Assembly: GCA_018668635.1 (NCBI GenBank)
Contig: JABJCN010000157.1
Span: forward strand, 170-64,169
Length of the DNA stretch: 64,000 bases
Origin: Opitutia bacterium
GTDB taxonomy: Bacteria > Verrucomicrobiota > Verrucomicrobiia > Opitutales > JABJCN01
Direction: 5' to 3'
In this document: positions 4,237 to 58,140 of the stretch, one piece after another
How the letters are laid out: every line of letters begins with the position of its first letter
How positions within the stretch are numbered: position 1 is the first letter of the stretch
The notes under the pieces: model-generated
Told to the model about the DNA's origin: nothing
Seen by the model: only the letters and a program-made list of their open reading frames with translations
The model's database searches: none
Translations under genes and position numbers: made by a program

Positions 4237-4318
4237 AATGGCAATTGGAATTTACAGTACAGAATAACTGCTCAAAGATTTGGACAATCCTGACATTTTT
4301 CTCAAGTTTGATTGCCGT

Positions 4319-20801: not shown

Positions 20802-20876
20802 TTTCTAATTCCATCCACCGTTTTCATTCCTTTCCATTTTTTTGTCCAAAGCGTTCACTTTGGGGGTGAATTGGAT

Positions 20877-32368: not shown

Positions 32369-32376
32369 CCCTTTGA

Positions 32377-38956: not shown

Positions 38957-39162
38957 ATAAGTGGTACTACGTCAAGCCTTCGGTTTGGTTTTACAGTAGT
39001 TTTTTGTTTCCGTTCATCATTATGGTGAACCATGTCCATTTGGGGGACGGGAAACTTTGTGCCGAAATTCGTTGAATTCACTTGCGTATGTGCGGGTTTT
39101 AAGGTAAAGATATTTTATTCTTACCTATAATCATTTTCTGCCCACCCAAAATTCAATGACCC

Positions 39163-42100
39163 TTGGACGCGTTCTCTGGGTCATTCAGCCTTTTTTGCGT
39201 TAAAATGATTGAAAGCAGATGGCTCAACGTCTTGAATTACCGACATCATCTTTTGAGCATTCTCGCAATGCCTGCCTTTAAAAACAAAATCACAACTTCT
39301 TTCCAAAAGTTGTTGCCAATTGCATTGGCTATGATGCTAGGCACTACGCCTGCTTATTCGGATCTGACTGCTTACTACCAATTAGTCCTTGAGGAAGTAT
39401 CCTGGGCCGATGCGGTTGAAACCTCTCAGGAACGCGGAGGCAACCTTGCCACTGTTACAAGTCAGGCTGAATGGGATCAAATCAATGAGCAATTGGGAAC
39501 TAGCATCGATGGCCTAGACCTCTGGCTTGGTGGAAGAGCAGATCCTGAAGATACTGAGCAGGACCCCGGTAAGCGCAGGTGGATCTGGGTCACGGGTGAA
39601 GAATGGGATTATTCACGCTGGCGGAGACTGGAACCGGATGGCAACTTCGGTGTTCAGGACCGTCTTTTCATTAACGGTAGTCACCCAAGTGAAGGTGCTG
39701 ACCACAAGTGGAACGATCACCCAAACAAAGCGGTCGACCTGGCTTTTTCAAAATATGAGATCAAGGGCTACATCATAGAATTAGGTTGGGCATCCATTGA
39801 TGGCAATCTCAGATATGTGGGCTCCAAGTCCGGAAACTTATACATTTCAGTTACCGGTGGTCCTGCTGATCACCCTGGTGGCAGTCGCATGATGCGTCAA
39901 CCCGGGGACTTCAGTTTTACAAACCTGGTGAAGGGGTTCGAGTATACAATCATTGCCTACCTCGACACAAATTCGAATCAAAACCAGGACGAAGGTGAAC
40001 CCGAGGGACGATACGTTTACACACCGCACCTGCTAACCGAAGACCTAAAGGACATCACAGTCACGGTATATGACGAGAACAGTCCGCCCAATCCGTTGGT
40101 GCTCAATGGTCAGTCCATTCACGACAATGACGAGGTCGGCAAGGAAATCGGCATAGTCATTCCATCAGATCCCGACGAGGGACAGGAATTGATGGTATAT
40201 GTTATTGATCCCACCCACAAGTTTCGTGTCGACGGCAACAAGCTACTTATCACGACAACCTTCAATTCAGAAGAAATCCAATCACAACCGCTTGTCCTTC
40301 GCACCGTGGACGACGGTGGACTCTTTACCGACACACAATTTAACCTTTCCGTCCTTCCTCCCAACCGAAGCCCGACGATCAACACCCGTGAATCTGTCAC
40401 TATAGATGAGGACTCCTTCTTCCGCATGGCAACATCCGGAGAGAACATCCTCCAATTTGATGATGATGCGACAGGGAATGAGCAGGTGGAAGTTACATTC
40501 ACGGTTACAGAGGGAGGCATCTATTTCTTCAAAAACAACAATATCACCTTTACGGATGGCGAACCAGGCACTGGATACGTGAAATTCAGAGGCACTCTGG
40601 ATAATGTGAATGCCAGGATGGATCGTCTCACATACAACCCTCCTGAAGACTTCAACGGTCAGGTTACATGGACCATCGAAATCAGTGATCTCGGCAACCA
40701 CGAGGGAAGTGTTCCACTTACTGCGTCACACACAATCGATATCACCATTAATGCCGTCAATGACGCCCCGGAAGTCACCGTCCCCGAGGCCATTCAGAAC
40801 CTGCTGGAGGACAGCACCCTCACGTTTAATATAATCAAAGGGAACCCCATTACGGTCAACGACGACCCGGAGAATGACCAACCCATCACCTTTGAGATGA
40901 GTGTGGATCATGGCACCCTGACCCTTGGCAAGATCCGCAACCTTACATTCCTCACAGGGGCTGACGAATCTTCTCATATGGAGATAAGTGCCACCACCAC
41001 CGCGCTCAACTCCGCGCTGAACGGCCTGACCTACACCGCCCCCAGGGATTTCGACGGCACTGCCACCATTTCATTCCTCACCGCTGATAACGGCAATATT
41101 GGAAAGGGCGGGCCCAAGACTGCACAAAACTCTCTCGATGTCTCAATCCTGGCAGTCAATGATGCTCCCATCATCACCGGTCCCTCGCTGGTTACACCCG
41201 TTGAGGATATTCCTTTCAGCTTTGACGGTGAGGCAGATGCCCTGATCACGATCATCGACGACGCTGCCAACGAGGGTGACGACAACCAGGTTGGCAACGT
41301 CACCACCCAGCTCACCATCAATGTCGACCACGGCACTGTCCGCATGGGGCGTCTCAACGGCCTTACATTTCTTGAGGGCGACTCTGCAGGGGATAGCAAA
41401 CTGGTCATGACCGGCCCCTACAATCTCATGGTTCTGTCCCTTGATGGCATGACCTATACATCGGACAAGGATTACAATGGTGGTGATAGCCTCAAGGTCG
41501 AGTTCAACGACTTGGGGCACTTTGGCGAAGGGGGTGCCAAGACTGCCGCACATACTGTCCTCTTGGTCGTTGGACCCGCCAACGACCCGCCGACCGATGT
41601 CCTTATCGACTCCTCCTCTGTCGCGGAAAACAAGAAGGCCGGTACCTCTGTTGGCAAACTCAGCGCCGTGGACCCCGATGCAAATGACACACATACTTTC
41701 AAACTGGTGGTGCCTGCAGACGCCGGAGCACCACCATTCACCATCTCCGGCAACACCCTCAAGACCACCCGCGAACTGGATGCCGAGGATGAACCCCTCA
41801 TCTTGGTCCACATCGCCGCCACCGACAAGGCCGGTGCCACCTTTACCAAGACCCTCTGGATTCACGTCACAAATCTCAACGATGCACCCACCGGCATCAA
41901 TATCGACAACTCCGTCATCCCTGAGGAGGAACCCGCCGGCACGTTTGTCGGGACCCTTACCACTATTGACTCCGACGGCACCCTCGGTCGGGGACTCATC
42001 GGCTACTGGCCCTTTGATGACGGGCAAGGCATCTCCGTAGCGGACTACTCGGGGAACGGCAACGGTGGCACCATCAACAACGAGACACCCACCATGTGGA

Positions 42101-45100
42101 AACCCGGTAAAATCGGTACCGCCCTGGAACTCAATGGTTCCACCCGTCTTGTCGAGATCCCCCACATCCACAAGTATCTCATTGATTCCGGCACATTTTC
42201 CATCTGGTACAAGCACACCAATGACCAGGGGGCTCTTTTCTCCAAGGATTCATCCGGCTTCGATAACGGCGGGCATTTCTACCTGACCATGAATGCAAAG
42301 AAGCTCGCCGTTCGACTGCAGGGTATCAATACCCACAACAATCTCTCCATGAATGCCGCCTCATCGGTCCTGAACACCCGTAGCCAGTGGCACCACGCAG
42401 CATTCACCTTTGGCACATCCGGAATGACCCTTTATCTCGACGGTGAGATCATGTCCACCAATACCCATTACACCGGCGGCCTCGGTCAGTCCTCCGGCGG
42501 CAGCGGCAACGCTGAACCCATCGCAATCGGTGCCAATACTCTACAGAGCGGGGACAACACCCTCTTCCCGGCAAAGGAATACTTCAAGGGCAGTGTTGAT
42601 GAGTTCCGCATCTACGACCGCGCACTCAGCGACATCGAGGTCCTCGAGCTCATGGAGACCACCACCACCACCAATGACTTCCATGTCTACACGCTCGTTC
42701 CCGGGGTGGGGGCCGGGGACAACTCCTCATTCTCAATCGATGACAACCAACTTTTTACCAAGGTTCCACTCGACCATGAGGGTCGCGATGGTTACCACAT
42801 TCGCATTCGCACACAGGATTCCGCCGGTGAAACCTTTGAGCAATCCCTTCACATCACCACCACCAATGTCAACGACCCGCCGTCTGACATCATACTGACC
42901 CCCGATGCCTTTACCGAGAACCAGGTTGTCGGGGCCACGGTTGGACTTCTGAGTGCAATGGATGATGGCGGGATCGAGGAAGGCGTCGGTTCCTACCAGA
43001 TCGTAAACACAGCCATGGATTGGGAACAGGCAAACGCCAACGCGGAAGCCTTGGGCGGTCACCTTGCCATCATCACCAGTGAAGCGGAATGGCAAAAGGT
43101 TATGGAACTCCCCGGTCTAAAGCAGGGCCTATTTATTGGTGCCACCGATGAGGAGGAGGAGGGGACCTGGAGATGGGTCAACGGACAACCACTCGCCGGC
43201 GAGAACCGCCAACCCGATACATTTCATGCCTGGCTTGGCAGCGAACCCAATAACACTGGCGATGCCGAGCACTATGCCGTTATTTGGGAATGGGATCAGG
43301 CTTATGCCTGGAATGACACCGGCAATTCTTCAACCGGGCACATAGTCGAGTTCCCCGGCATCAGCTATCAACTGGTTGAGGGTGAGGGCGATACCGACAA
43401 CTCCCTCTTCACCATTGAGGGCAACGAGCTCAAGGCGGCCTCCGGGTTTAATTTCGAGACCAGGTCCGCACACAGCATCCGGGTCAAGGCCACGGATTCC
43501 GGGGGGCTCTCCCTCGAGAAAGCCATTTCAGTAACCATCACCGATGCCAACGATACACCGGTTGGCATCACCATTGACAACAACACCATCGATGAAGGGC
43601 TGGCCAAGGGGGCAACAGTCGGCAACCTCTCCGCCATCGACGAGGATGCCGGGGATACCCACACCTTCAGCCTGGTGGTGCCTGCAGATGGCGGAGCTCC
43701 ACCTTTCACCATTTCCGGCAAAACGCTCAAGACCACTGCCGTCCTCGATTTCGAGAGCCAGCCCACGCACGAGCTCATGGTCATGGTGACCGATGAGGCC
43801 CAGGCTTCGTTTTCCCAGGTCATCACCATCAATGTCAATGACACCAATGATCCGCCCACCGGAATCACCCTCGCACCGGCGGAGGTCGCCGAGGGGTTGC
43901 CAAGGGACACTGTTATCGGTACATTGACCGCAATCGACACCGATCCCGGGGACACCCACACCTTCCGCATCACCGGTGGCGCCGACAAGTCCCTCTTCAA
44001 CATCTCCGGCAACCAGCTTTTCACAAGGGAGGTGCTCGATTACGAGACCAAGGCCCAGCTCGAGGTCACCATCGAGGCCAGGGATGAAAGCAACCTCACC
44101 TTCGAGCAGACCCTGACCGTCAATGTGATCAACGCAAATGACCCGCCCACCGATATCACCCTGGAACCAACCACCTTTGCTGAGAACCTGGCCATCGGGA
44201 CCGATGTAAGCAAGTTGGCGCTGGTGGATCCGGATGGAAATGACGCGGGTAATGAGAATCCCACGACTTCTGCAAAATACGTCTTGGTCAATAAAACACT
44301 GACATGGAAAGAGGCCAAGGCTGAGGCCGAGAGCATGGGCGGTCATCTTGCCACTTTCAACTCCGAGCAGGAATGGGATGCCATGGTTGCAGAAGTTGGT
44401 CTCACGAACATTTCCAATGACAACATTTGGCTTGGTGCCACCGACGAGGTGGAGGAGGGCGTATGGAAATGGGTGACAGGGGAACCTGTTACCTACAATC
44501 GGTGGGACGAGGGCCAACCGGACGGGAAAACCAACCAGCACTATATGTTGATCTGGGCAGCTACGGGTGCCAGGTGGGATGATATGGAGTTGAATGGCTA
44601 TGGTAATGTGGCCCTCAGATACTTTCTTTTGGAACTGCCATCGACACCATCTTTCACCCTCACCTCCGGTTCCGGCGACACCGACAACTCCCTCTTCACC
44701 ATAGAAGGGGACCAGCTCAAGACGGCGGCGGACTTCAATTACGAGGCCCGGGACGAATACACCATCCGGGTCAAGGGCACCGATTCCGGTGGCCTGAGCA
44801 TTGAGAAAACCTTCACCCTCGACCTCACCAATGCCCCGGATGCGCCCACGGACATCCTGCTCAGCGAAAGTACCGTCGACGAGAACCTCAAGAAGGGGAC
44901 CCTGGTCGGGAACCTGGTCGCCACCGATGAGGATGCCGGCGAGAAGCACACCTTCAAGATGTTCAATGCCACCCTGGTTGCCAACCCGGACAACGCCCTG
45001 TTCACCATCTCCGGCAACCAGCTAAAGACCAACGACATCTTCGACTTCGAGACCAAGTCCAGCTACACCATCAACGTAGAGGTCACCGACGATGATGACC

Positions 45101-48100: not shown

Positions 48101-51100
48101 TAACGGGAGGTCTGGTACGCTCTTCTCCTGCCATTGGGCCTGATGGTACCGTCTACATCGGTTCATTTGACAACAAGGTGTACGCTTTGAACGGTAAAAC
48201 TGGTTCTAAGAAATGGGAGTTTGTCACGGGAGGTTCTGTGAAGTCATCACCTGTGATCGGATCAGATGGGATGGTCTACATCGGGTCTTATGACAAAAGG
48301 ATATATGCTCTGGATGGCGAGACTGGAGAGAAACAATGGGAGTTCATTACGGGAGGGCGGGTGCAGCGGTCGCCGTCCATCGGATCAGATGGAACCGTCT
48401 ACGTAGGTTCATTTGACAACATAATATACGCGCTTAACGGGAAAACCGGTGTCAAGAAGTGGGCTTTTGAGGCTGGGGACATGCTGGAATCCTCTCCCGC
48501 GATCGGCTCGGATGGAATCGTCTATGTAGGGTCTGCTGACAAAAATGTCTATGCTCTGGATGGTCATACTGGGGTTAAGCTATGGGAATTCATGAGCGGA
48601 GGAAAGGTAATCTCCTCTCCCGCGGTCGGCTCGGATGGTACCGTCTATGTCGGGTCTGTTGATAAAAAGGTCTACGCCCTTGATGGCAAGACTGGCGCTA
48701 AACAGTGGGAATTTGTAACTGGAAACAGCATTAAATTGTCTTCCCCCACTATCGGTTCGGATGGCACCGTCTATATCGGGTCGCATGATAATAAGGTCTA
48801 TGCCATCCAAGGATCCTCCGGTCCTGCAAATTCCACCTGGCCAATGTTCGGTCAGAACCCGCAGCATACTAGTCGGATCGACGATAGTAGCTCAGGTTTC
48901 TCCTCCTTCACCCTCACAGCCGGTTCAGGCGACACCGACAATTCCTCATTCACCATCGACGGGGACGACCTGAAGCTGGCCGCACCGCTGAACTACGAGG
49001 CCAAGAGTAAGTACAGCATCCGGGTCAAGGGCACGGACAGCGGGGGACTCTCCATCGAGAAGGAATTCCTGATCGATGCCACCAATGTCCCCGAGGCGCC
49101 AACCGCCGTTGTTCTGGACAACGACACCGTGGAGGAGAACCTCAAGAAGGGGTCCACCGTGGGACGCCTGTCAACCACTGACGAGGACAGCGGCGAGAAG
49201 CACACCTACAAACTGGTCGATGCACCGGAAGGGGAGACCAACCAGAACGCCCGCTTCACCATTTCAGGAACCACACTGCGTACCAACGACGTATTTGACT
49301 TTGATGTCGTGCAGGAGCAGACGGTCCATGTCGAGGTGACCGACCGGGGCAAGCTGACCTTTGTGCAGGCCTTGACCATCCGGATCATCGACGCCAATGA
49401 CCCGCCGACCGGCCTGACCATCGCATCGGACAGCGTGGACGAGAATCAACCCAAGGGCACCGTGATCGGGGCCCTGACCGCGGTGGACCCCGATGCCGTG
49501 GATTCGCACACCTACTCCATTGTCGGTGGCCGGGACAAGAAGCTCTTCGCCGTGGCGGATGGCAACCTGGTATCCACGATGCCCTATGATTTCGAGACCC
49601 AACCCACGCTGGAGGTTGTGGTCCGTGTCTATGACAAGCGGAAGGCCCAGGGGGAATTCCCGCTGAGCATCACGGTGAACGATGTCAATGATGTGCCGAC
49701 CGACATCACCCTCAGCAACGACACCATCGCGGAGAATGAACCCACCGACACCATCATCGGGAAGCTGGTCCTTCTCGATTCAGATGGGGCAGGTGGCCCA
49801 ACGGTCGATCCCGTCAGTGGAAATACCCAGTTTGATTTCACCAACGGCCTCGTGGCCTACTATCCATTCAACGGAGATGCCAAGGATGAAACCGGCAACG
49901 GGCATGATGGCGTCGTCCACGGGGCAAGCCTGGGCCCTGACAGGCAGGGGACAGATACAAGTTCCTATTACTTTGATGGGGTGGATGACTACATCGATGT
50001 TGGGAGCCATCAACTGGACGGTGCTTTTACGATTGCCTCGTGGGTTTATCACGACGGGGTGAACACCCTACCATGGTTTGAGGCTGTTTATGCTACGGCC
50101 AATGTAGATATCGGTCTCTTCGCCCACCTACTTGAAGGGTCCATGTTCTCCAGACTCCATGTGGGAGGCAATAACGATGCCTATATCGACACAGATAAAA
50201 TGACAGTTCCCACCGGCAACTGGTATCACCTTGTTGGTTCATGGGACGGCCAGAACGCCAGTTTATACATCGATGGTACCGCAAAGGCTACGGCATTGAC
50301 CGGGTCAATGAATGCTCCGGTCCCCTCAAATTCATACTTGGGAAAGAATGGTTGGCGGGAAAACGAGGAGGAACTGGGTGAACACCTTAAAGGCCGTCTG
50401 GACGATGTGCGCGTCTACGGCCGTGCACTTTCAGTCGAGGAAGTTACCGCCCTCTACAATCTCGAAAGTGGGACATCTACTGGCACCACCTCCTTCGCCC
50501 TCACTGCCGGCGATGGCGATACCGACAACTCCTTCTTTACCATCGACGGGGACGACCTGAAGCTCGTTCCCTCAGCAGACTTTGAAACCAAAAACGAGTA
50601 CAGTGTGCGGATCAAGGGGACCGACTCTGGCGGTCTCTCCATCGAGAATATCTTCCAGGTCGGCGTGACCGATGTGAACGAGGCCCCCTTCAATGCAACC
50701 CTGGATATCACCCTTGTAGAGGAGAATGCACCGGCCGGGTTCCGCCTTGGCAAACTGGTGGCCCTGGACCCCGACCGCGGGGACAAGGTGGTGGTGACCC
50801 TTGCTGAGGATACCGACGAGATTGACAACGAGCATTTTCAGTTCAAGGGAACAAGCCTGGTTACGAAGACAGCCTTTGACTATGATACACAGCCGACCCG
50901 CACCCTTCGTGTGATTGCGACCGATTCCGGTGGTCTGAACACGGTGACGGACATCCTGATCAACATTGGCAACAAGAGTGAACCACCCACGGGCATTACC
51001 CTGGACGGCACCTCGGGCGAGGTGGTTTCCGTGGAGGAGAATGCCGCTACGGATACATTGGTCGGCAGCTTTACCACGGAAGACCCGGATGGAGCCGAGG

Positions 51101-54100
51101 CCTTTGTCTACAGCCTTGTCAGTGGGGATGGAGATATAGGGAACAAGAACTTCACCATCGATGCGGAGGGCAACATAAAGGTCAAGGCTTCCGCCAACCT
51201 GGACTTTGAAACATCCCCCGCCACTTCTGTACGGGTCCGCACGACGGATACAGGAGGGAACTCCCTGGAGATATCCTTTGCAATTGCCATAACCAATGTA
51301 AATGAACTTCCCCTGGGGGTCACGCTCGACAACGAATCCGTAATGGAGGGCCTGCCGAATGATACACTCGTCGGCACACTATCCGCGACCGACACGGACA
51401 GCGGGGATTCCCACACCTTCACCCTGGTGGACGGGGCTGGAGGCACCCACAATGACCTGTTCAAGATTGTTGGTGATGAGCTCCAGGTTGCACAGTTGAT
51501 TTCCGGCAAGACAACCCCGGTGGCCAGCATACTGGTCCGGGTGACGGATGCCGGTGGCCTTACATTCAATCAGGCATTATCCATAACCATAACCGATGCC
51601 CCGGATGCGCCAACCGGTATCAACCTGGATGGCAACTCAATCAAGAAGTATGAGCGCACCGGTACATTGATCGGCACACTGACCGCTGTCGATGGTGATG
51701 AGGATGACAGCCACACCTTTGCACTGGTCAGTGGTGCAGCCGGGACCAACAACGAGCTTTTCTTTATCGATGGGGATCAACTGGTCTCCAACCACATGTT
51801 CGATGACACTGCTGCAGCCTCCTACAAGATCAATGTGGAGGTGACGGACAGCGCGGACCTCACTTTTGTAAAGACCTTCACCATCACCATCATTAACGCT
51901 GCCAACCCCGGTGGACACCTGGTCGATGTGACCAAGATTCCCGTGGATGGCGGACTGGTGGCCGGTGCCGGGTACTACACCGATGGTGAAGCCGTGAGCC
52001 TTGTCGTGAAAAACAGCCCGGGCTACACCTTCTCCGGTCACAGCGGTGACGTGGCGGGAGGTTTCTCCGCTGAAAACCCGCTGGAGTTTGATGCGGATGG
52101 GAACAAGGACATCATCACCAGCTTCACTCAGGGGTATCACAAGGTTGTGGTTGGCGTGACTCCGGAGCGTCATGGTTATGCCTGGGGCGGAGGCAGTATC
52201 CAGCATGGTACCGAGATCACTGTCCAGGCCAAGGAACTTGACCCGAAATACGGCTGTGTCTTCACCCACTGGAGTATCAACGGGGTTGACCAACCCGTGG
52301 ATGAATCGAGCCCGCTTGTCCTGAAGGTGACCGTGGATCGCACCCTTCGTGTTCTTGCCCACTTTGACTACGGCCTGCCGGATTCCATGAAACTGGTTCC
52401 CTCTGGCAACTTTTCACAGGGCGATGCCCGCTACCATGGGGAGAAACCGGTCATCACCCCGCTGGTCAGTGCATTCTATATGGATGAGCATGAGACCTCC
52501 AAGAAGGATTTCTATGATGTCTTCAACTGGTCAATCCAGCAGGAGACCCCGTACAGCTTCATGTTTGATCCTACCGTTGTCAACGGGCGCAACCGGGCCC
52601 ACATCGATGGTGGATACAAGGATGATTTCCCCATCACGGCCATTACCTGGCTGGATGCCATTGCATTTGCCAATGCCCTTTCTGAAATGGAGGAGTTGAC
52701 CCCCGTATACTACGAGGATGCTGCAAGGACCACGGTCTTCCGTGGCCGCAAGCGTGACAAGAATGCGGATGCCGGGAATGAGGAGAGCCACCTCGGGCAA
52801 AAAATTTATGAATCCAATGTGGACTGGCGGGCCAAGGGGTATCGCCTTCCCACAGAATCGGAATGGGAGAAGGCGGCTCGCGGCGGTGTTGCAGGACTCA
52901 CCTATGCCAACAGCAACACGCTGGACTCCAAGTTTACCCATTATGACCAGGATACCATAATCCGCAGTCTGCGATCGGTGGGCAGCCTGGAACCCAATGG
53001 CTTTGGCCTTTATGACATGAACGGCAATGCATGGGAGATGTGCTGGGACTGGCACTGGAAGAACTGGTATTTTGAAGCGGATGCATCCGCCAAGGACCCC
53101 AAGGGTCCAGATATGTCTGACAAGACCATCTTCGATAAGGTCAATGCGGAAAACTGGCTGGTCCGTACGGTTCGGGGGGGTAGTGGCAATACCGACAAGT
53201 CCCGGATGCGTATTTCCTACCGCAAGGATTTCAACAAGACATGGTACCAATACGCCATAACCGTACGCCCGCTGGTTCCAGCACCAAGTGATCCGCGTGC
53301 CGAGGTGATCGTGGCGCTTGTCCCTGCACACCTTGGGTCTGTGACAGGTGGCGGTGTCTATGAAATTGGGGCGACTGCAACCCTCATTGCCACACCCGCC
53401 TCAGCCAATGCAAATTTCCTTCGGTGGGAGGATGCTGCCGGGAATAACCTGGGTACCGGCACCACACTTTTACTTAGCCTGAATTCAACCGGTGCAGATG
53501 ACGACCTGGACAAGGAGATCACCGCAATCTTTGAGGATACATCCAATCCCGATGACCAGCTCTATAGCCTCGAGGTTGTTGCTGATCCATTTGGCTCAGG
53601 TACAGTCCTTGGTGGAGGTGCCTACAAGCTCGGCGCAGAAGTCACCCTGACCGCCGTCCCTTCCAATGGTAATGATTTCGCCGGATGGTCCGGGGATGCC
53701 TCCGGCACTGAAACGGAGACCAAGATAACGATGGACGGACACAAGAAGGTCCTGGCGTACTTTGGGGATACATCCGAGGATTCCGATGAGGATGGTCTTT
53801 CTGACCTTTATGAAAAGAGCCTGGGTACCAATCCGGAAGACAAGGACACGGATGATGACGGTTTGACCGATGGCGAGGAGATGAACACCCATTCCTCCAA
53901 TCCGCTTCTGGTTGATTCTGATGGGGATGGTCATGATGACAAGACCGAGGCCTTCCATGGCACTACCCTGAATGATTCATCTGACTTTCCATTCCTCGAG
54001 CAGGACAGGATTGGACTCTGGTATGTATTCAAGGGTAAGGCATACGACATGTCTCCAGCCCGTAATCACGGAAAACTCAAGAGCGTCAGTTTTACCAAGG

Positions 54101-56655
54101 ATCGCTTCAATGCCGGAAAGAACGCCATGCGGTTCAGTGGCGACAAGAGCACCGTGGAGGCAGGAAGCTACAAGGGTGTGGGTGGAGCCGGTCAACGTGC
54201 GGTTTCCATGTGGGTCCTGGGTGAGGCCGGTCAATCCGGTGGAGTCCTGTATTGGGGTTCCTCCGGCAAGGAGTTTGCATTGGGTATTGGTTCCAGTGGT
54301 GAGATTGTCGTGACCGCCGAGGGTGGGACGCTTGCTGGCACCACCGACCTCATGGACGGGCTATGGCACCATGTCGTTGTCAGTGTTCCACAGGATGGAT
54401 CACTGGATGACACAGCTGTTTATGTCGATAATTCTGTTGAGACAATCACAGGGTCAGGGTCAACGGGGACTGCCCTCAATACGTCGTCAGGAACCACCCT
54501 CACCATCGGGAGAGATGAGGCCGGCACATACCTTAAGGGGCTTATTGATGATGTGCGTGTCTGGGAAAGGTCACTTGCAGCCAGCGAGGTGGACAAACTT
54601 TATGAACTGGAGAAACCAACCGCACCTCCGGAACCGGATGTAATTTCACCCAAGATTACGGTGCACCCGACTCATCAGGGTGCGGCAACCAGCGGGAGTG
54701 CAAGCTTTACAGTCGAGGCTACGGGCAAGCCTGACCCGACCTATGCATGGCAGAAGCAGGAAAATCGAAAGTGGAAAAACATTCCCGGGGGCACCCTGGC
54801 AACCTTCACCATTGACAGCACCGCCCTGGGTGATGCAACCAACTACCGTGTTGTTGTCAGCAACAGCGCCGGATCAGTAAACAGCAAAACGGCTCGCTTG
54901 TCGGTGCTGGATCCACCTGCTTTCGTCATCCAACCGCAGGACATGCTCTTTGCAACCGGCAGTAATGCGACCTTGGAAGTGGATGTCACAGGAAGCAAGA
55001 CCCTTCGTTACAAGTGGTACAAGGATGGTTCAGAGATTCCCAAGGCCACAAAGAGCAGGCTGACCATAAAGAAGGTGTCGGCAGCAAGGGACAATGGTAC
55101 CTATCAGGTCGAGGTCGAGAATGGAGCCGGCAAGATGACCAGTGATGAGTTTAATGTATCTATTATCAGTGCTGTCGAGGTGACAGACGATCCGGTTGAC
55201 GCCTCTTTCGTGATGGGTACCGGGGGCACACTTTCAGTTACCGCAACCGGTGGGGGAACGATTACCTACCAGTGGGAGAAGTTCGACCCGAAATCCAGGA
55301 AGTGGGCTGCTGTTGAGGGTGCGACATCCGCAACCTTGACGGTTGCAGATGTACAGTCCGGAACTGTTGGAGAGTACCGATGTGTTGTTGATAACGTTGC
55401 CAGTAGTGATTACAGCAAGGGAGGCGACCTTGGTATGTATATTGTACCTACTTTCAAGACCCATCCACGCAGCTACAGCCTGAATGAGGCTCGGAAGGTT
55501 ACCCTGAAGGCATTAGCCAATGGTGACCCTGATCCAAGCTACCAATGGGAGAAAAGCACCAACGACGGAGCATCCTGGCAGGAAGTGTCCAAGGCCACGA
55601 AGTCGGAACTGGCATTCAGCAAGGTATCCACCAACAATGCCGGTCGCTATCGTGTCAAGGCCATCAACGGAGGCGGTATAACCACCAGTGATGAAGCCAC
55701 ACTCATTGTCTATTTTGCACCAAGAATCACCACCCAGCCAGTTGCCAGTTCCGTCAACGAGGGGGATGCAGTCAACTTAAGTGTCGTTGCCACCAGCCTC
55801 GACAGCAAGGGAACCACTTCCACGTACGTATGGTACAAGGATAAGAAGGCGGTCAAGGATGGTGACGGAGTGAGCGGAGCCAAGACGGCAGATCTTTCCA
55901 TTGCGACCGCAGGAGTAGTCAATGCCGGCAGTTACTACTGTGTCATCAAGAACAGTGTCGGCTCTGTGCAGACATCCTCAGCAAAGGTAACGGTAATGCT
56001 GAAGCCGTACTCAACCAAGACCCTCAAGTCCTTGAGCCTGGCTGACGGTAAGACAGCCACTTTTTCAGCAAGTATATCGGGTGGCAAACCGGTGACCTAT
56101 CAATGGCAGAAAGATGGGGCAGATATATCTGGTCAGGTGGCAAACAAACTGTCCCTTAGGGGAGTCAAAGCCTCCGACTCCGGAATCTACAGCATTATTG
56201 CAACCAATGCGGCTGGAAGTTTCACGCTCAGTGCGGATTTGACTGTTGCCGCAGCTGCATCTGTTGCCGAAGCTGACGATACGATCACTGAACTGGATGA
56301 GGAAAGCCTGCTTTCTGCTGTGGAGGATGCGGATGGTGACGGCATGAGTAATCTTCTTGAGTACGCCTTGGGTAGCGACCCCGCCAATAATGAATCCACT
56401 TTTGAACCGCTGGTCGATACCGTTGAGGATGGAAGTGGCGCCACCTATGTGAGTTTCAGTTATACCGAGAACAAGTCGGTAACGGATGTAAACTATATCG
56501 TAGAAAGATCTGTTGATCTCAAGAACTGGGAGCCGGTTGACTTGGCTAATGCCTCAGTGAACCGCGTTGACAGGGGAGGCTTTACGGAAGTTACCGCCTT
56601 TATCCCAACGACGGATGGAAGTGGTTTCCTTCGGGTTAGTGTTGCCAACCAGTAA
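39163..56655 (+). CDS. Giant secreted multidomain adhesin-like protein, 5,830 aa as the maximal ORF: 4 C-type lectin domains, ~23 cadherin repeats, 3 LamG, an 8-blade propeller, an FGE-fold domain, InlB-B-like repeats, TSP3-like repeats, 6 Ig-like domains
   Basis: A single uninterrupted ORF. The maximal start is TTG 39163. ATG 39205 or ATG 39268 is more likely; the latter gives the Sec-type signal peptide MPAFKNKITTSFQKLLPIALAMMLGTTPAYS. Domain motifs are listed in the sub-features. Confidence 0.9.
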   Translation: MDAFSGSFSLFCVKMIESRWLNVLNYRHHLLSILAMPAFKNKITTSFQKLLPIALAMMLGTTPAYSDLTAYYQLVLEEVSWADAVETSQERGGNLATVTSQAEWDQINEQLGTSIDGLDLWLGGRADPEDTEQDPGKRRWIWVTGEEWDYSRWRRLEPDGNFGVQDRLFINGSHPSEGADHKWNDHPNKAVDLAFSKYEIKGYIIELGWASIDGNLRYVGSKSGNLYISVTGGPADHPGGSRMMRQPGDFSFTNLVKGFEYTIIAYLDTNSNQNQDEGEPEGRYVYTPHLLTEDLKDITVTVYDENSPPNPLVLNGQSIHDNDEVGKEIGIVIPSDPDEGQELMVYVIDPTHKFRVDGNKLLITTTFNSEEIQSQPLVLRTVDDGGLFTDTQFNLSVLPPNRSPTINTRESVTIDEDSFFRMATSGENILQFDDDATGNEQVEVTFTVTEGGIYFFKNNNITFTDGEPGTGYVKFRGTLDNVNARMDRLTYNPPEDFNGQVTWTIEISDLGNHEGSVPLTASHTIDITINAVNDAPEVTVPEAIQNLLEDSTLTFNIIKGNPITVNDDPENDQPITFEMSVDHGTLTLGKIRNLTFLTGADESSHMEISATTTALNSALNGLTYTAPRDFDGTATISFLTADNGNIGKGGPKTAQNSLDVSILAVNDAPIITGPSLVTPVEDIPFSFDGEADALITIIDDAANEGDDNQVGNVTTQLTINVDHGTVRMGRLNGLTFLEGDSAGDSKLVMTGPYNLMVLSLDGMTYTSDKDYNGGDSLKVEFNDLGHFGEGGAKTAAHTVLLVVGPANDPPTDVLIDSSSVAENKKAGTSVGKLSAVDPDANDTHTFKLVVPADAGAPPFTISGNTLKTTRELDAEDEPLILVHIAATDKAGATFTKTLWIHVTNLNDAPTGINIDNSVIPEEEPAGTFVGTLTTIDSDGTLGRGLIGYWPFDDGQGISVADYSGNGNGGTINNETPTMWKPGKIGTALELNGSTRLVEIPHIHKYLIDSGTFSIWYKHTNDQGALFSKDSSGFDNGGHFYLTMNAKKLAVRLQGINTHNNLSMNAASSVLNTRSQWHHAAFTFGTSGMTLYLDGEIMSTNTHYTGGLGQSSGGSGNAEPIAIGANTLQSGDNTLFPAKEYFKGSVDEFRIYDRALSDIEVLELMETTTTTNDFHVYTLVPGVGAGDNSSFSIDDNQLFTKVPLDHEGRDGYHIRIRTQDSAGETFEQSLHITTTNVNDPPSDIILTPDAFTENQVVGATVGLLSAMDDGGIEEGVGSYQIVNTAMDWEQANANAEALGGHLAIITSEAEWQKVMELPGLKQGLFIGATDEEEEGTWRWVNGQPLAGENRQPDTFHAWLGSEPNNTGDAEHYAVIWEWDQAYAWNDTGNSSTGHIVEFPGISYQLVEGEGDTDNSLFTIEGNELKAASGFNFETRSAHSIRVKATDSGGLSLEKAISVTITDANDTPVGITIDNNTIDEGLAKGATVGNLSAIDEDAGDTHTFSLVVPADGGAPPFTISGKTLKTTAVLDFESQPTHELMVMVTDEAQASFSQVITINVNDTNDPPTGITLAPAEVAEGLPRDTVIGTLTAIDTDPGDTHTFRITGGADKSLFNISGNQLFTREVLDYETKAQLEVTIEARDESNLTFEQTLTVNVINANDPPTDITLEPTTFAENLAIGTDVSKLALVDPDGNDAGNENPTTSAKYVLVNKTLTWKEAKAEAESMGGHLATFNSEQEWDAMVAEVGLTNISNDNIWLGATDEVEEGVWKWVTGEPVTYNRWDEGQPDGKTNQHYMLIWAATGARWDDMELNGYGNVALRYFLLELPSTPSFTLTSGSGDTDNSLFTIEGDQLKTAADFNYEARDEYTIRVKGTDSGGLSIEKTFTLDLTNAPDAPTDILLSESTVDENLKKGTLVGNLVATDEDAGEKHTFKMFNATLVANPDNALFTISGNQLKTNDIFDFETKSSYTINVEVTDDDDLVFMKELTIGVNDINDAPTGLTLAPAEVAEDLPRDTVVGTLTADDPDAEATHTFRLIGGDDKALFNISGNQLTTKAVLDYEAKPRLEVIIEAKDNGNLTFEQTLVINVINVNDPPTDIILDNDTFAENQVVGTTVGLLSAMDDGGIEEGVGSYQIVNTPMNWEQANANAEALGGHLAIITSEAEWEKIKELPGLKQGLFIGATDEEEEGTWKWVDGQPLAGMNRQPDTFHAWRSTDPNNSDDIEHYAVIWYDDRDQVYSWVDFPNSTGHIVEFPGITYQLVAGNGDTDNALFIIQGDQLNTAAAFNYEARDEYTIRVKGTDSGGLSIEKVFTLDLTDAPDVPTEILLSNNTVDENEKKGAIVGNLGATDEDADEKHTFRLLDIPVDPDPNQPAPAPSDNSFFAISGTTLKTNAVLDFEAKSAYTITIEVTDKDKRTYQQEIVVGVNDANDAPTGLTIDRDAVAEGLPKGTEVGTLLAQDPDAGDSHTFRITGGKDYKLFSIVDNKLLTKEVFDREVKAAFEVEVTATDSGRLIAETLFNITVIDVNDAPTDVTLDNDTIAENQPADSIVGNFTLVDQDGGGDPTTGGLSETGGVNPGTGGSTSFTLAEGAGDTDNASFTIDGERLKIVAPLNFEAKPQHTIRVKATDAGGLSVERNFLVKVTNVPEAPVAIAISNDSIAENLKKGATIGKLSATDEDAGEKHTFKLIDSPAGVGNDNALFSISGYNLRTNAVLDFDATPQLSVLVEVTDRAKLTYTQVLTINVTDANDAPTGLTIDPVTIAENQAKGTEIGTLTAIDPDTGDTHTYSVVGGKDKKLFAVNGDKLITNAILDYELKSELDLVIRVTDSGKASVDIPLPITVTDVNDGPTDITLDNDTIAENQPADTVVGKLALEDPDGAGGGSAPVIITEGVGEKLWEFETGDYVYSSPAIGIDGLVYFGSFDRKIYALVGQTGIKKWEYETGGQVESSIAIGSDGTVYVGSNGGSVYALDGQTGSKKWEFVTGGLVRSSPAIGPDGTVYIGSFDNKVYALNGKTGSKKWEFVTGGSVKSSPVIGSDGMVYIGSYDKRIYALDGETGEKQWEFITGGRVQRSPSIGSDGTVYVGSFDNIIYALNGKTGVKKWAFEAGDMLESSPAIGSDGIVYVGSADKNVYALDGHTGVKLWEFMSGGKVISSPAVGSDGTVYVGSVDKKVYALDGKTGAKQWEFVTGNSIKLSSPTIGSDGTVYIGSHDNKVYAIQGSSGPANSTWPMFGQNPQHTSRIDDSSSGFSSFTLTAGSGDTDNSSFTIDGDDLKLAAPLNYEAKSKYSIRVKGTDSGGLSIEKEFLIDATNVPEAPTAVVLDNDTVEENLKKGSTVGRLSTTDEDSGEKHTYKLVDAPEGETNQNARFTISGTTLRTNDVFDFDVVQEQTVHVEVTDRGKLTFVQALTIRIIDANDPPTGLTIASDSVDENQPKGTVIGALTAVDPDAVDSHTYSIVGGRDKKLFAVADGNLVSTMPYDFETQPTLEVVVRVYDKRKAQGEFPLSITVNDVNDVPTDITLSNDTIAENEPTDTIIGKLVLLDSDGAGGPTVDPVSGNTQFDFTNGLVAYYPFNGDAKDETGNGHDGVVHGASLGPDRQGTDTSSYYFDGVDDYIDVGSHQLDGAFTIASWVYHDGVNTLPWFEAVYATANVDIGLFAHLLEGSMFSRLHVGGNNDAYIDTDKMTVPTGNWYHLVGSWDGQNASLYIDGTAKATALTGSMNAPVPSNSYLGKNGWRENEEELGEHLKGRLDDVRVYGRALSVEEVTALYNLESGTSTGTTSFALTAGDGDTDNSFFTIDGDDLKLVPSADFETKNEYSVRIKGTDSGGLSIENIFQVGVTDVNEAPFNATLDITLVEENAPAGFRLGKLVALDPDRGDKVVVTLAEDTDEIDNEHFQFKGTSLVTKTAFDYDTQPTRTLRVIATDSGGLNTVTDILINIGNKSEPPTGITLDGTSGEVVSVEENAATDTLVGSFTTEDPDGAEAFVYSLVSGDGDIGNKNFTIDAEGNIKVKASANLDFETSPATSVRVRTTDTGGNSLEISFAIAITNVNELPLGVTLDNESVMEGLPNDTLVGTLSATDTDSGDSHTFTLVDGAGGTHNDLFKIVGDELQVAQLISGKTTPVASILVRVTDAGGLTFNQALSITITDAPDAPTGINLDGNSIKKYERTGTLIGTLTAVDGDEDDSHTFALVSGAAGTNNELFFIDGDQLVSNHMFDDTAAASYKINVEVTDSADLTFVKTFTITIINAANPGGHLVDVTKIPVDGGLVAGAGYYTDGEAVSLVVKNSPGYTFSGHSGDVAGGFSAENPLEFDADGNKDIITSFTQGYHKVVVGVTPERHGYAWGGGSIQHGTEITVQAKELDPKYGCVFTHWSINGVDQPVDESSPLVLKVTVDRTLRVLAHFDYGLPDSMKLVPSGNFSQGDARYHGEKPVITPLVSAFYMDEHETSKKDFYDVFNWSIQQETPYSFMFDPTVVNGRNRAHIDGGYKDDFPITAITWLDAIAFANALSEMEELTPVYYEDAARTTVFRGRKRDKNADAGNEESHLGQKIYESNVDWRAKGYRLPTESEWEKAARGGVAGLTYANSNTLDSKFTHYDQDTIIRSLRSVGSLEPNGFGLYDMNGNAWEMCWDWHWKNWYFEADASAKDPKGPDMSDKTIFDKVNAENWLVRTVRGGSGNTDKSRMRISYRKDFNKTWYQYAITVRPLVPAPSDPRAEVIVALVPAHLGSVTGGGVYEIGATATLIATPASANANFLRWEDAAGNNLGTGTTLLLSLNSTGADDDLDKEITAIFEDTSNPDDQLYSLEVVADPFGSGTVLGGGAYKLGAEVTLTAVPSNGNDFAGWSGDASGTETETKITMDGHKKVLAYFGDTSEDSDEDGLSDLYEKSLGTNPEDKDTDDDGLTDGEEMNTHSSNPLLVDSDGDGHDDKTEAFHGTTLNDSSDFPFLEQDRIGLWYVFKGKAYDMSPARNHGKLKSVSFTKDRFNAGKNAMRFSGDKSTVEAGSYKGVGGAGQRAVSMWVLGEAGQSGGVLYWGSSGKEFALGIGSSGEIVVTAEGGTLAGTTDLMDGLWHHVVVSVPQDGSLDDTAVYVDNSVETITGSGSTGTALNTSSGTTLTIGRDEAGTYLKGLIDDVRVWERSLAASEVDKLYELEKPTAPPEPDVISPKITVHPTHQGAATSGSASFTVEATGKPDPTYAWQKQENRKWKNIPGGTLATFTIDSTALGDATNYRVVVSNSAGSVNSKTARLSVLDPPAFVIQPQDMLFATGSNATLEVDVTGSKTLRYKWYKDGSEIPKATKSRLTIKKVSAARDNGTYQVEVENGAGKMTSDEFNVSIISAVEVTDDPVDASFVMGTGGTLSVTATGGGTITYQWEKFDPKSRKWAAVEGATSATLTVADVQSGTVGEYRCVVDNVASSDYSKGGDLGMYIVPTFKTHPRSYSLNEARKVTLKALANGDPDPSYQWEKSTNDGASWQEVSKATKSELAFSKVSTNNAGRYRVKAINGGGITTSDEATLIVYFAPRITTQPVASSVNEGDAVNLSVVATSLDSKGTTSTYVWYKDKKAVKDGDGVSGAKTADLSIATAGVVNAGSYYCVIKNSVGSVQTSSAKVTVMLKPYSTKTLKSLSLADGKTATFSASISGGKPVTYQWQKDGADISGQVANKLSLRGVKASDSGIYSIIATNAAGSFTLSADLTVAAAASVAEADDTITELDEESLLSAVEDADGDGMSNLLEYALGSDPANNESTFEPLVDTVEDGSGATYVSFSYTENKSVTDVNYIVERSVDLKNWEPVDLANASVNRVDRGGFTEVTAFIPTTDGSGFLRVSVANQ
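39373..39789 (+). other. C-type lectin-like domain 1 of the giant protein (EPD...WND)
   Basis: WADAVETSQERGGNLATVTSQAEWDQI...LWLGG...RWIWVTGEEWDYSRW..LEPDG...KWNDH. Confidence 0.7.
40380..41590 (+). repeat. Three ~135-aa bacterial cadherin-like/VCBS-type repeats, each ending in (V)NDAP/NDPP
   Basis: The pattern recurs: ...LTYNPPEDFNGQVTWTIE...INAVNDAPEVT; ...LTYTAPRDFDGTATISF...ILAVNDAPIIT; ...MTYTSDKDYNGGDSLKVE...GPANDPPTDV. Confidence 0.6.
41995..42657 (+). other. LamG (Laminin_G_3) domain 1, nested in a cadherin repeat
   Basis: LIGYWPFDDGQG..DYSGNGNGGT...WHHAAFTF...LYLDGE...VDEFRIYDRALSDIEVLELM. Confidence 0.75.
42991..43359 (+). other. C-type lectin-like domain 2 (EPN...WND), nested in a cadherin repeat
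   Basis: MDWEQANANAEALGGHLAIITSEAEW...FIGATDEEEEGTWRWVNGQPL...SEPNN...AWNDTG. Confidence 0.8.
44275..44640 (+). other. C-type lectin-like domain 3 (QPD...WDD), nested in a cadherin repeat
   Basis: LTWKEAKAEAESMGGHLATFNSEQEW...IWLGATDEVEEGVWKWVTGEPVTYNRWDEGQPDG...RWDDME. Confidence 0.8.
45553..45924 (+). other. C-type lectin-like domain 4 (DPN...WVD), nested in a cadherin repeat
   Basis: MNWEQANANAEALGGHLAIITSEAEW...FIGATDEEEEGTWKWVDGQPL...TDPNN...SWVDF. Confidence 0.8.
47839..48822 (+). repeat. Eight tandem ~41-aa (123-nt) PQQ-like beta-propeller blades, nested in a cadherin repeat
   Basis: Eight consecutive units of the type K(K/Q)WEFxTGGxVxSSPAIGSDGTVY(V/I)GSxDxKVYALDGxTGx, followed by WPMFGQNPQHTSR. 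Confidence 0.85.
49846..50466 (+). other. LamG (Laminin_G_3) domain 2, nested in a cadherin repeat
   Basis: GLVAYYPFNGDAKDETGNGHDGVVHGA...YYFDGVDDYIDVG...WYHLVGSWDG...LYIDG...LDDVRVYGRALSVEEVTALYNLE. Confidence 0.8.
52387..53275 (+). other. FGE-sulfatase-fold (SUMF1/PvdO-like) domain without the FGE cysteine pair
   Basis: MKLVPSGNFSQGD...FYMDEHETSKKDF...PITAITWLDAIAFANALSE...GYRLPTESEWEKAARGG...GLYDMNGNAWEMCWDW...VRGGSG. Confidence 0.75.
54016..54612 (+). other. LamG (Laminin_G_3) domain 3
   Basis: LWYVFKGKAYDMSPARNHGKL...MRFSGDKS...WHHVVVSV...VYVDN...LIDDVRVWERSLAASEVDKLYELE. Confidence 0.75.
54649..56250 (+). repeat. Six tandem Ig-like (I-set-like) domains
   Basis: Six ~90-aa units with the Y(Q/K/V)W(Q/Y/E)K...G(T/E/R/S/I)Y...N..G pattern, e.g. 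TYAWQKQ...NYRVVVSNSAGS, RYKWYKDG...GTYQVEVENGAG, TYQWQKDG...GIYSIIATNAAGS. Confidence 0.75.
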
Positions 56656-56737: not shown

Positions 56738-58129
56738 CTACGCAATTATCTCATGCTGGACGTTGCCATGAACATCCGTGAGCCTGAAGTTACGACCCTG
56801 AAACTTGAAGGTAAGACGCTCGTGATTGATGCCCAGCAGGTGAAGGATGGTGGCATTGAAATCATGGACATGCACAGGATTTAACACCGGCTTGTATCCC
56901 AGTTCATCGGTTTGACCATGAACGTGACCTCCCTTGACTCCGCCCCCGGCCATCCAGACTGTAAATGCCTCCTTGTGATGATCCCTACCATTGCCTTGTG
57001 CCATGGGAGTACGACCAAACTCAGAACTCCACACGACCAGTGTTTCATCAAGCAGTCCTCGTTGCTTCAGGTCGTTAATCAGGGCGGCTATGGGTTGGTC
57101 AACCAGTTTTGCCTTGCCGGGAAGGCTCTTGAATACCCCGCCATGGTGATCCCAACCCTGGTCAAAAAGCTGCACAAATCGAACGCCTCGTTCAACCATA
57201 CGCCTCGCGAGAAGGCAGTTGTTTGCAAAACTGGCTCCTCCCGACTTGGCTCCATACTGTTCAAGGGTTGTCTTTGATTCAGTATTTAAATCCATCAATT
57301 CCGGTACCGATGACTGCATTCGGTAAGCCATCTCGTATTGGCTGATGCGTGTGGCAATTTCCGGGTCACCGACATCCGCCAGGTTTTCACGGTTCAGCTT
57401 GTTGATGGCATCGATTGTACGCCTTCTATCCTTGTTGCCCATGCCCTTGGGGTTTGAGAGGTATAATACCGGGTCTCCCTTTGAACGAAACTCGACTCCC
57501 TGATAGACGGATGGAAGAAACCCACTGCCAAAGATGCTGTTGCCTGCACCGGGGTACTGACCGGTAACCAATGTGACAAAACCGGGTAAATCCTGATTTG
57601 CTGTCCCGAGGCCGTAATTGACCCAGGACCCCATGCTTGGTCGTCCGAATTGACCAAATCCTGTGGACATGAACATCTGCGCCGGTGCATGGTTGAAATG
57701 ATCCGTGTGAAGGGTTCGGATGAAGCACATTTCATCCGCACACTGCTGTAGCTTGGGGAGCAGGTTGGATATGGTATTGCCCGATTGGCCACATGGTTGA
57801 AACCTGAATTTATCGCCCTTGTCGGTGCCAAGTAACTTCGGTTGCTTTCGAATGAAAGCCAGTCTCTTGCCCTTGAAGAATTCATCCGGACAAAGTTCAC
57901 CATCATGTTTCTGCAGTTCGGGCTTCCAGTCAAACAGGTCAAGGTGTGAGGGGCCCCCGACAAAGTGAAAATAGATGATATTTTTTGCCCGTGCAGGATG
58001 ATGCATGCCTGTGCTTCGACCAAGAAGGTCCTGCTGGAGCATGCTGGCCAGGGCAATGCCGCCAATTCCATTTCCGGTATGCTGGAAAAGGGAACGCCTT
58101 GAAAGGGTCTGTATATCAACCGGGTTCAT
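56738..58129 (-). CDS. DUF1501 domain-containing protein (sulfatase-fold, Tat signal)
   Basis: Twin-arginine leader [23 protein letters not shown]; [17 protein letters not shown]; GRDHH near the C-terminus. This is the typical DUF1501 partner of DUF1553 proteins. Confidence 0.85.
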
Positions 58130-58140
58130 TTTGAATTATA

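Follow-up and report, generated by a model that had tools for sequence, protein, structure and literature searches.

Does the 17.5-kb open reading frame (ORF) found in a contig of an Opitutia bacterium (Verrucomicrobiota, Opitutales) correspond to one real gene, and what could a protein of this size do for the cell? The ORF lies in contig JABJCN010000157.1 of GenBank assembly GCA_018668635.1. Positions 170 to 64,169 of its forward strand, a stretch of 64,000 nucleotides, were analyzed and are called the window below; all coordinates refer to the window unless stated otherwise. The ORF is a genuine single gene, whose product would, on balance, be exported by the Sec pathway and probably serve a marine Opitutae bacterium as a Ca2+-rigidified, multivalent glycan-binding surface fiber.

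Reading frame, translation start and assembly integrity

The frame of the giant gene contains no internal stop codon, in agreement with the initial annotation of the window, which described one uninterrupted 17.5-kb ORF of 5,830 codons. The ORF listing for the other five frames across the same 17.5 kb contains nothing longer than 473 amino acids, which excludes a chance origin of the giant ORF. The first possible start codon is a TTG. The actual start is probably the ATG at position 39,268, since it yields MPAFKNKITTSFQKLLPIALAMMLGTTPAYS, a leader resembling a signal peptide; in the orthologous protein P0116, a hydrophobic leader immediately precedes the conserved YYQLVLE start of the first C-type lectin-like domain (CTLD1). 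The product then has 5,795 residues, which are numbered from this methionine throughout. The computed mass of the mature protein is about 617 kDa and its isoelectric point is 4.3. Aspartate and glutamate together make up 15% of the residues, and there are only four cysteines in 5,795 amino acids. None of these is in the signal peptide, which therefore has no lipobox.

By exact sequence match, the product corresponds to GenBank entry MBT6462824.1 from a marine "Opitutae bacterium" metagenome-assembled genome (MAG). The GenBank/PGAP start at position 39,331 (5,774 amino acids) cuts the leader away, and the assigned name, "PQQ-binding-like beta-propeller repeat protein", covers about 6% of the protein. 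This automatic name is misleading, and both the name and the start merit correction. The GC content is 0.54–0.60 within the giant gene (window positions 40,001–56,000), compared with 0.45–0.51 in the flanks; the increase is probably due to the Gly/Asp/Thr/Ala-rich composition of the protein and not to foreign origin.

Misassembly, a concern raised together with the initial annotation, was tested against independent assemblies and by the identity of internal repeats. Two further full-length versions of the gene are present in ENA assemblies from different samples, one on contig NODE_67 of a SPAdes assembly and the other on a k141 contig built by MEGAHIT. Compared with the window, they show 12 nucleotide differences (5 amino acids) in 17,325 nt and no indels, and the gene order around the giant gene is the same. 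The DNA repeats within the ORF are 60–86% identical, with the best long pair reaching 86% over 300 nt. Given an indel-free ORF from independent assemblers and samples and divergent internal repeats, collapse of repeats, chimerism or misassembly appears very unlikely.

Domain architecture of the giant protein

The domain map was constructed using Pfam, NCBIfam and hidden Markov models iterated on the giant protein itself (self-HMM) (Table 1). The total content is 23 cadherin repeats, four CTLDs, three LamG domains, an eight-blade propeller, four InlB B-repeats, one domain with the fold of formylglycine-generating enzyme (FGE) and six immunoglobulin-like (Ig) domains. The cadherin family PF00028 matches with 201–299 bits per 2,000-residue segment (gathering cutoff 28.8), and the self-HMM resolves 23 repeats. 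The lectin family PF00059 gives two matches of 86 and 49 bits (cutoff 22.6), with four copies by self-HMM, and PF03781 matches the FGE-fold domain with 120 bits. The domain order first proposed by eye proved almost wholly right; the one entry not borne out by this map is the small beta-sandwich at residues 176–283, for which the Pfam and NCBIfam search gave no family at E<=1. No hydrophobic or transmembrane segment was found by sequence scan after the signal peptide.

The combination of these domains had been described as a metazoan extracellular-matrix toolkit. The domain families stand; the metazoan framing is overstated, given the four cysteines and the routine occurrence of such proteins in the Planctomycetes-Verrucomicrobia-Chlamydiae (PVC) group. 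With four cysteines in 5,795 residues the protein lacks the disulfides typical of animal CTLD and Ig domains, and its lectin, cadherin, Ig and other domains are, as judged from sequence, bacterial versions.

Table 1. Features of the giant gene and its upstream region (window coordinates; residues counted from the methionine at 39,268)
Feature	Position	Strand	Evidence
ECF sigma-70 factor, Sigma70_r2/r4_2; 88% identical in orthologous locus L011	36618..37223	+	Pfam
Anti-sigma factor, single-pass, FecR and LamG; 50% identical in L011	37220..38956	+	Pfam
Leader/promoter region, 311 nt	38957..39267	+	
Maximal ORF, 5,830 codons and stop	39163..56655	+	ORF listing and translation
Probable start codon ATG and Sec-type signal peptide, residues 1–31	39268..39360	+	Sequence reading; equivalent leader in P0116
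CTLD1, residues 36–175, EPD...WND	39373..39792	+	Pfam Lectin_C, self-HMM, motifs
Beta-rich region, residues 176–283	39793..40116	+	No family match
Isolated cadherin repeat, residues 284–359	40117..40344	+	Self-HMM
Three ~135-aa Big_9/Cadherin_5/Cadherin_4 (tandem-95) repeats, residues 360–784	40345..41619	+	Pfam, NCBIfam
Array of 22 cadherin repeats, residues 785–4206	41620..51885	+	Pfam, self-HMM, motifs
Guest 1: nested LamG	41980..42627	+	Pfam, self-HMM
Guest 2: CTLD2, EPN...WND	42982..43362	+	Self-HMM, motifs
Guest 3: CTLD3, QPD...WDD	44248..44643	+	Self-HMM, motifs
Guest 4: CTLD4, degenerate motif DPN...WVD	45541..45924	+	Self-HMM, motifs
Guest 5: eight-blade PQQ/BamB-type beta-propeller, 41-aa blades, 123-nt tandem repeat	47800..48873	+	Pfam, self-HMM, DNA repeats
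Guest 6: second nested LamG	49837..50472	+	Pfam, self-HMM
Two InlB B-repeat (Flg_new_2) domains	51940..52383	+	Pfam, self-HMM
FGE-sulfatase-fold (C-type-lectin-like) domain, residues 4373–4659	52384..53244	+	Pfam
Two InlB B-repeat domains	53323..53757	+	Pfam, self-HMM
Three thrombospondin type 3 (TSP3) DxDxDG Ca2+ motifs	53779..53967	+	Pfam
LamG-3 (Laminin_G_3), residues 4950–5108	54115..54591	+	Pfam, self-HMM
Six I-set Ig domains, residues 5133–5643	54664..56196	+	Pfam, self-HMM
C-terminal module, residues 5685–5795: DADGDG-MSNLLEYALGSDP loop-helix and ~85-aa beta-sandwich ending GFLRVSV	56320..56652	+	

Guest domains inside cadherin repeats

Nearly all cadherin repeats and linkers contain the xEN, DxD, LDxE and DxNDxPT motifs, which are predicted to form Ca2+ sites between successive repeats. 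In the array of 22, six repeats are split, all of them at profile position ~21–26 in the B-C loop, and each holds a complete guest domain. Profile positions 1–24, which span strands A and B as far as the DxD motif, begin exactly one linker past the preceding repeat, and positions ~20–82 complete the cadherin repeat after the guest. The three CTLD units are underlain by a super-repeat of ~1,290 nt, which comprises a split CTLD unit and two plain cadherin repeats. Three stand-alone genes in the window, at 10031–10978 (-), 34238–35584 (+) and 61243–62469 (-), encode PQQ_2/BamB-type beta-propellers, the same propeller type as nested guest 5.

Among the 149 cadherin-rich representatives examined, nine contain split repeats, and some of these lie outside the giant-protein family. 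The guest-in-cadherin principle thus appears uncommon and not unique. Two proteins outside the family, P0134 (5,221 amino acids) and P0091 (4,178 amino acids), carry seven and three guests of ~340 residues in split repeats, respectively, so that the nested-cadherin architecture reaches beyond the giant protein and its relatives. The literature search, within the library searched, returned no paper joining cadherin, split domain and bacterial adhesin. What appears to be new is that a single loop of genuine cadherin repeats serves again and again, along the whole stalk, as a docking site for interchangeable guests; such a conserved insertion loop acts like a natural domain-display scaffold.

Predicted ligand-binding domains

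When aligned to solved lectins, CTLD2 has its EPN...WND motif in register with those of Mincle, also EPN...WND, and of CLEC4D, EPD...WND; QPD...WDD of CTLD3 occupies the position equivalent to the sugar-site motif. This register with Mincle and CLEC4D makes a glycan-binding adhesion role of the giant protein plausible.

The nearest solved sequence to the FGE-fold domain is Treponema TvpA (2y3c), a binding protein with the C-type-lectin fold. The domain has a single cysteine, Cys4592, in the strand GNAWEMCWDW, which aligns with EWCWDW of TvpA. An active formylglycine-generating enzyme needs a catalytic pair of cysteines (copper site). A two-cysteine site is impossible with the single cysteine, and a catalytic role was ruled out. 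TvpA is a retroelement-diversified protein. A corresponding role as the variable protein of a diversity-generating retroelement was rejected: the FGE region has no repeat within the window that could act as template, no reverse transcriptase is found among the annotated ORFs of the window, and the domain shows no amino-acid variation between assemblies and thus no hypervariability. The FGE fold is used a second time in the window, again in a form that looks non-catalytic, at 30041–33189 (-), where a Ser/Thr protein kinase is fused to an FGE-sulfatase-fold domain (775 amino acids) next to a PP2C phosphatase.

Relatives that share the C-terminal chassis

To find relatives, one complete split unit was searched exhaustively against 1.84 billion representative proteins. 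The search produced 14,656 matches at E<=1e-3, most of which owe their score to the cadherin fragment. The whole split unit is matched in one stretch by three giants: P0116 (5,449 amino acids), P0090 (7,398) and P0126 (4,618). They have a common chassis of InlB-B, FGE, two InlB-B, LamG, six Ig domains and the terminal module, and vary in how long the stalk is, which guests it carries and what head stands at the N-terminus. The head consists of a CTLD and tandem-95 repeats in P0116, as in the giant protein, and of leucine-rich repeats (LRR) in P0090 and P0126. The giant protein is 39–48% identical to P0116 in every region. Intact ORFs are kept by four diverged full-length relatives (39–48% identity; 4,618–7,398 amino acids), and a further family member has 2,897 residues; the C-terminal chassis is common to relatives of 2.9–7.4 thousand residues. 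Searches with the N-terminal 759 residues and with single modules matched only short or fragmentary proteins, and a scan of contigs with the cadherin/propeller unit gave propeller relatives only and no ortholog.

The insertion site at profile position 20–27 is common to ~24 split repeats in four proteins, the giant protein and its relatives. The guest repertoire of the family includes CTLD, LamG, PQQ, RCC1 and FG-GAP propellers, DUF1080 jelly rolls and a surface Ig-like domain. In the relatives, the guests include RCC1 and FG-GAP propellers, tandem domains similar to DUF1080/3-keto-disaccharide hydrolase, one surface Ig-like domain and two domains without a family. Taken together, the sequences show a family in which the C-terminal chassis is constant, while the stalk and the guests vary.

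In loci L003, L014 and L015 (ERZ28548097 and ERZ28548057, pilon-polished contigs), family members are split into many short ORFs, with domain matches that run on across the frame changes. These breaks look like leftover sequencing or polishing error. Such breaks would keep giant genes out of protein catalogs.

The C-terminal module

The last ~110 residues of the giant protein form a module that recurs at the end of many other proteins. When metagenomes were scanned with a profile of the module, 65 loci were found. In 32 of the 34 full-length matches, the module ends no more than 10 residues before the stop codon, and in 23 no more than three. The conserved last strand is [RG]F[FL]R[LV]x[VI]. 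The module also terminates an M4 peptidase, an S8 subtilase, enzymes of glycoside hydrolase family 5 (GH5), a beta-helix/chondroitinase-B-like protein, and CotH/LTD, PA14+GSDH, PATR-repeat, FN3/Ig and Calx-beta proteins (loci L014, L033, L038, L046, L050, L052, L054, L058, L061, L063, L064, L066, L068, L070 and L076). In L014, two adjacent large genes both finish with five to six Ig domains and the module, and one of them has a GH29 fucosidase domain. By-eye reading found hydrophobic leaders in the module proteins whose N-terminus is present. The named matches are labeled Opitutae, Verrucomicrobiae and Verrucomicrobiales.

No curated family describes the module; in Pfam and NCBIfam, only the TSP3-like motif with which it begins is covered. 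Part of DUF3999 shows a consistent sub-threshold similarity in eight of nine module members (best E 0.0035). A profile search of PDB sequences gave no match. The AlphaFold2 (AF2) model consists of a helix followed by a confident beta-sandwich of ~85 residues, for which Foldseek returned generic Ig/FN3-like neighbors only and no specific structural match. A full-text literature search for the module motif found no paper.

A tag for sorting, anchoring or assembly would be distributed in this way, and the module is a candidate for such a C-terminal tag. Like the C-terminal domains (CTD) of the type IX secretion system (T9SS) and like dockerins, it is small, strictly C-terminal and attached to many unrelated Sec-dependent secreted enzymes and adhesins. 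It shares an Ig-like beta-sandwich with the T9SS CTD, which belongs to a system of a different phylum, Bacteroidota; no match to the T9SS CTD (Por_Secre_tail) was obtained in NCBIfam or Pfam. The Ca2+ loop-helix at its start resembles one dockerin segment, but it is a single TSP3-type loop-helix and is not duplicated as in dockerins, and Pfam gave no Dockerin match. No partner machinery was identified. We tentatively put forward, as a possibility well short of a probability, that the module is an undescribed C-terminal sorting or anchoring domain of Verrucomicrobiota, with the giant protein, an ECF-switched cadherin display stalk, as its largest cargo. If so, the module would act in analogy to the T9SS CTD or to a dockerin: peptidases, glycoside hydrolases and adhesins that leave by Sec would be marked by it to reach the cell surface or to stay there, and the B-C loop of the stalk would be a docking site that evolution can reuse for different ligand-binding domains. 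A strictly C-terminal module without a curated family appears in any case to be new, and a tag carried by dozens of unrelated secreted enzymes could lead to the machinery of surface localization.

Putative regulation by an ECF sigma factor

Upstream of the giant gene and on the same strand are genes of an extracytoplasmic function (ECF) sigma factor and an anti-sigma factor, which overlap by 4 nt. The pair is retained upstream in locus L011, though the downstream genes of that locus differ. No more loci linked to a sigma/anti-sigma pair were found, the other loci stopping short of the 5' end of the gene. The conserved sigma/anti-sigma/giant cassette appears to be new. It resembles FecIRA-type cell-surface signaling in the combination of an ECF sigma factor and a single-pass anti-sigma factor with a FecR domain. 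In FecIRA, however, the third gene encodes a TonB-dependent transducer, whereas here it encodes the giant protein, which has no TonB-receptor or signaling-domain match.

At 39020–39031, the 311-nt leader of the giant gene contains a 12-mer whose GAAC core is ECF-like, TATGGTGAACCA; it recurs upstream of the L011 sigma gene (L011 positions 5123–5134). Two 9-mers are also common to these two regions. We regard the 12-mer as a weak lead to an ECF-type promoter element. The 311-nt leader matches no Rfam family, and neither a sigma-70-like promoter nor an intrinsic terminator was found around the giant gene.

Comparison with known adhesins and giant proteins

In repeats-in-toxin (RTX) adhesins of the LapA/MpIBP/FrhA/AhLap type, ligand-binding domains bud from split stalk domains (PMC12077191, PMC10865825), an arrangement that the six split repeats of the giant protein would share. 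RTX adhesins likewise have several thousand residues and an extender of Ig-like repeats rigidified by Ca2+, and their targets include fucosylated glycans and diatoms. They differ in that the split domains are bacterial Ig-like extenders, whereas those of the giant protein are true cadherin repeats (PF00028), and in that their ligand-binding domains form a distal cluster, whereas the guests are spread along the whole stalk (six in the giant protein, up to ~10 in a relative); the conserved end of the giant protein is, moreover, the C-terminal one. Membership in the RTX class was ruled out: the giant protein has no GGxGxD motif and no C-terminal signal of type I secretion, and carries a Sec leader instead.

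Classical metazoan cadherins have a transmembrane segment and a cytoplasmic tail that binds catenins; this class was also ruled out, as no hydrophobic segment follows the signal peptide. CabC and CabD of the marine polysaccharide degrader Saccharophagus degradans are likewise large, secreted and built of tandem cadherins; the cadherin domains of this bacterium are reported to bind Ca2+ and carbohydrate (Fraiberg 2010/2011 via PMC12153261, PMC3124978). Nested guests are not reported for them, and the phylum, tail and regulators are different; this comparison is by description only.

Among Planctomycetes, each Stieleria genome contains 12–14 genes longer than 15 kb that encode proteins of more than 5,000 residues with cadherin, tandem-95, Ig and carbohydrate-binding domains (PMC7717043), and the phyla of the PVC group, Verrucomicrobiota among them, often have proteins of at least 5,000 amino acids (bioRxiv 10.1101/2023.11.21.568195). 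Giant cadherin-rich proteins are thus routine in PVC bacteria, and the giant protein belongs to a known kind. The reports on PVC giants are, however, InterPro lists, with no description of a conserved site of insertion or of a tail in common.

Proposed function and alternative explanations

Marine Verrucomicrobiota specialize in degrading algal polysaccharides that are sulfated and rich in fucose. In the model that we favor, the giant protein would be exported by Sec and bind Ca2+ at every cadherin junction, so that the stalk would be rigid at the Ca2+ concentration of seawater and, by our estimate of ~4.5 nm per cadherin repeat, roughly at least 100 nm long. The lectin and propeller guests could project sideways from the split repeats, as in RTX adhesins, and together bind sugars of the fucose/mannose and galactose types with avidity, whether on polysaccharides of algae, on particles or on the surfaces of cells. 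The end nearest the cell would be the conserved tail, made of the Ig array and the terminal module, which would retain the protein at the surface or help to export it; the distal tip would be the N-terminus, which varies within the family (CTLD head, or LRR head in the paralogs). The adjacent pair of ECF sigma factor and FecR-LamG anti-sigma factor may control expression when an extracytoplasmic signal is received.

Several observations weigh against this model. Guest nesting is evident at the sequence level and only partly in three dimensions: in the AF2 model of one nested unit, based on a three-sequence alignment, the cadherin parts are confident and the inserted CTLD has a predicted local distance difference test (pLDDT) score below 50. 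The motif of CTLD4 is degenerate, and none of the four CTLDs contains a cysteine, hence the canonical disulfide pairs are missing. The giant protein shows none of the known signatures for crossing or anchoring to the outer membrane: no RTX repeats, LPXTG, PEP-CTERM, lipobox, beta-barrel family or transmembrane segment were found. On the regulatory side, the link to the sigma/anti-sigma pair is seen in two lineages only, the LRR-headed relatives P0090 and P0126 have no such pair, and the 9-mer core of the putative promoter motif occurs once per locus, which is the chance frequency, making the motif statistically weak. Finally, the surroundings had been called sulfatase-rich in support of an attachment role. 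Five sulfatases are indeed present in the window, yet they are 17–36 kb from the giant gene and not adjacent to it; its immediate neighbors are the sigma/anti-sigma pair and a DUF1501/PSD1 pair.

The main rival differs from the fiber model mainly in purpose and not in structure. It proposes a substrate-harvesting scaffold that captures sulfated and fucosylated polysaccharides, dissolved or in the gel phase, and holds them near the cell for sulfatases and glycosidases displayed by the same tail, in a cellulosome-like manner. We consider it unlikely, while granting that the tail is indeed carried by a GH29 fucosidase, GH5 enzymes, a beta-helix/chondroitinase-B-like protein and peptidases, that the module opens with a dockerin-like Ca2+ loop-helix, that sulfatases occur in the window and adjoin family member L015, and that a relative has guests similar to DUF1080/3-keto-disaccharide hydrolase. 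The giant protein itself contains no catalytic domain, no cohesin-like partner or Pfam Dockerin match was identified, and the proposal overlaps so heavily with adhesion that the two are inseparable in silico.

Cell-cell aggregation or a biofilm-matrix role through homophilic or heterophilic cadherin contacts, as reported for CabC and CabD, seems improbable. The long array of cadherin repeats, whose Ca2+ motifs are intact, would suit it, and Ca2+-dependent contacts of both types have been reported for bacterial cadherin proteins (cited in PMC12153261). It leaves unexplained at least 10 lectin-type and propeller modules and their rapid turnover between relatives, and the MAGs of planktonic marine Opitutae give no sign of aggregation.

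Very improbable is an "eukaryote-like protein", possibly acquired from eukaryotes, that acts on an animal or algal host in symbiosis or predation. It is from the matrix proteins of metazoans that these domain families are best known, the PDB sequence neighbors of the CTLDs are animal lectins, and BspA-type LRR and ankyrin proteins are encoded in the same window. Against this stand the near absence of cysteine, the bacterial cadherin-rich relatives, which number in the thousands among the 14,656 representative proteins, and a genomic context typical of PVC bacteria; the raised GC content follows amino-acid composition and need not mean transfer.

That the ORF is an assembly artefact, a pseudogene or several fused genes is effectively refuted already, because, even though contig ends interrupt the gene in many other short-read MAGs and relatives are frameshifted in polished long-read-type assemblies, different samples and assemblers give a full-length indel-free ORF, its internal repeats are divergent, and relatives at 39–48% identity retain intact ORFs.

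The surface fiber is the explanation that we prefer. It bears on how marine Verrucomicrobiota find and hold their substrates and on how PVC bacteria bring very large proteins to the surface. The giant gene also offers defined lectin modules with recognizable sugar-site motifs, which could be expressed with the split cadherin carrier.

Other genes of the window

Downstream of the giant gene, at 56738–61215 (-), are a DUF1501 gene and a PSCyt1/PSCyt2/PSD1 (DUF1549/DUF1553) gene; similar PSCyt/PSD genes are found near family members in L003, L013 and L015. The five S1 sulfatases (Sulfatase and SGSH_C) are encoded at 2839–4236, 4280–5755, 8124–10034, 19347–20801 and 20871–22601, and 3-keto-disaccharide-hydrolase/DUF1080 genes at 14258–16045 and 29253–30002. 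Further "eukaryote-like" repeat proteins of the window are a BspA-type leucine-rich-repeat protein of 1,046 amino acids at 11105–14245 (-) and a fusion of ankyrin repeats with acyltransferase_3 at 992–2779 (-).

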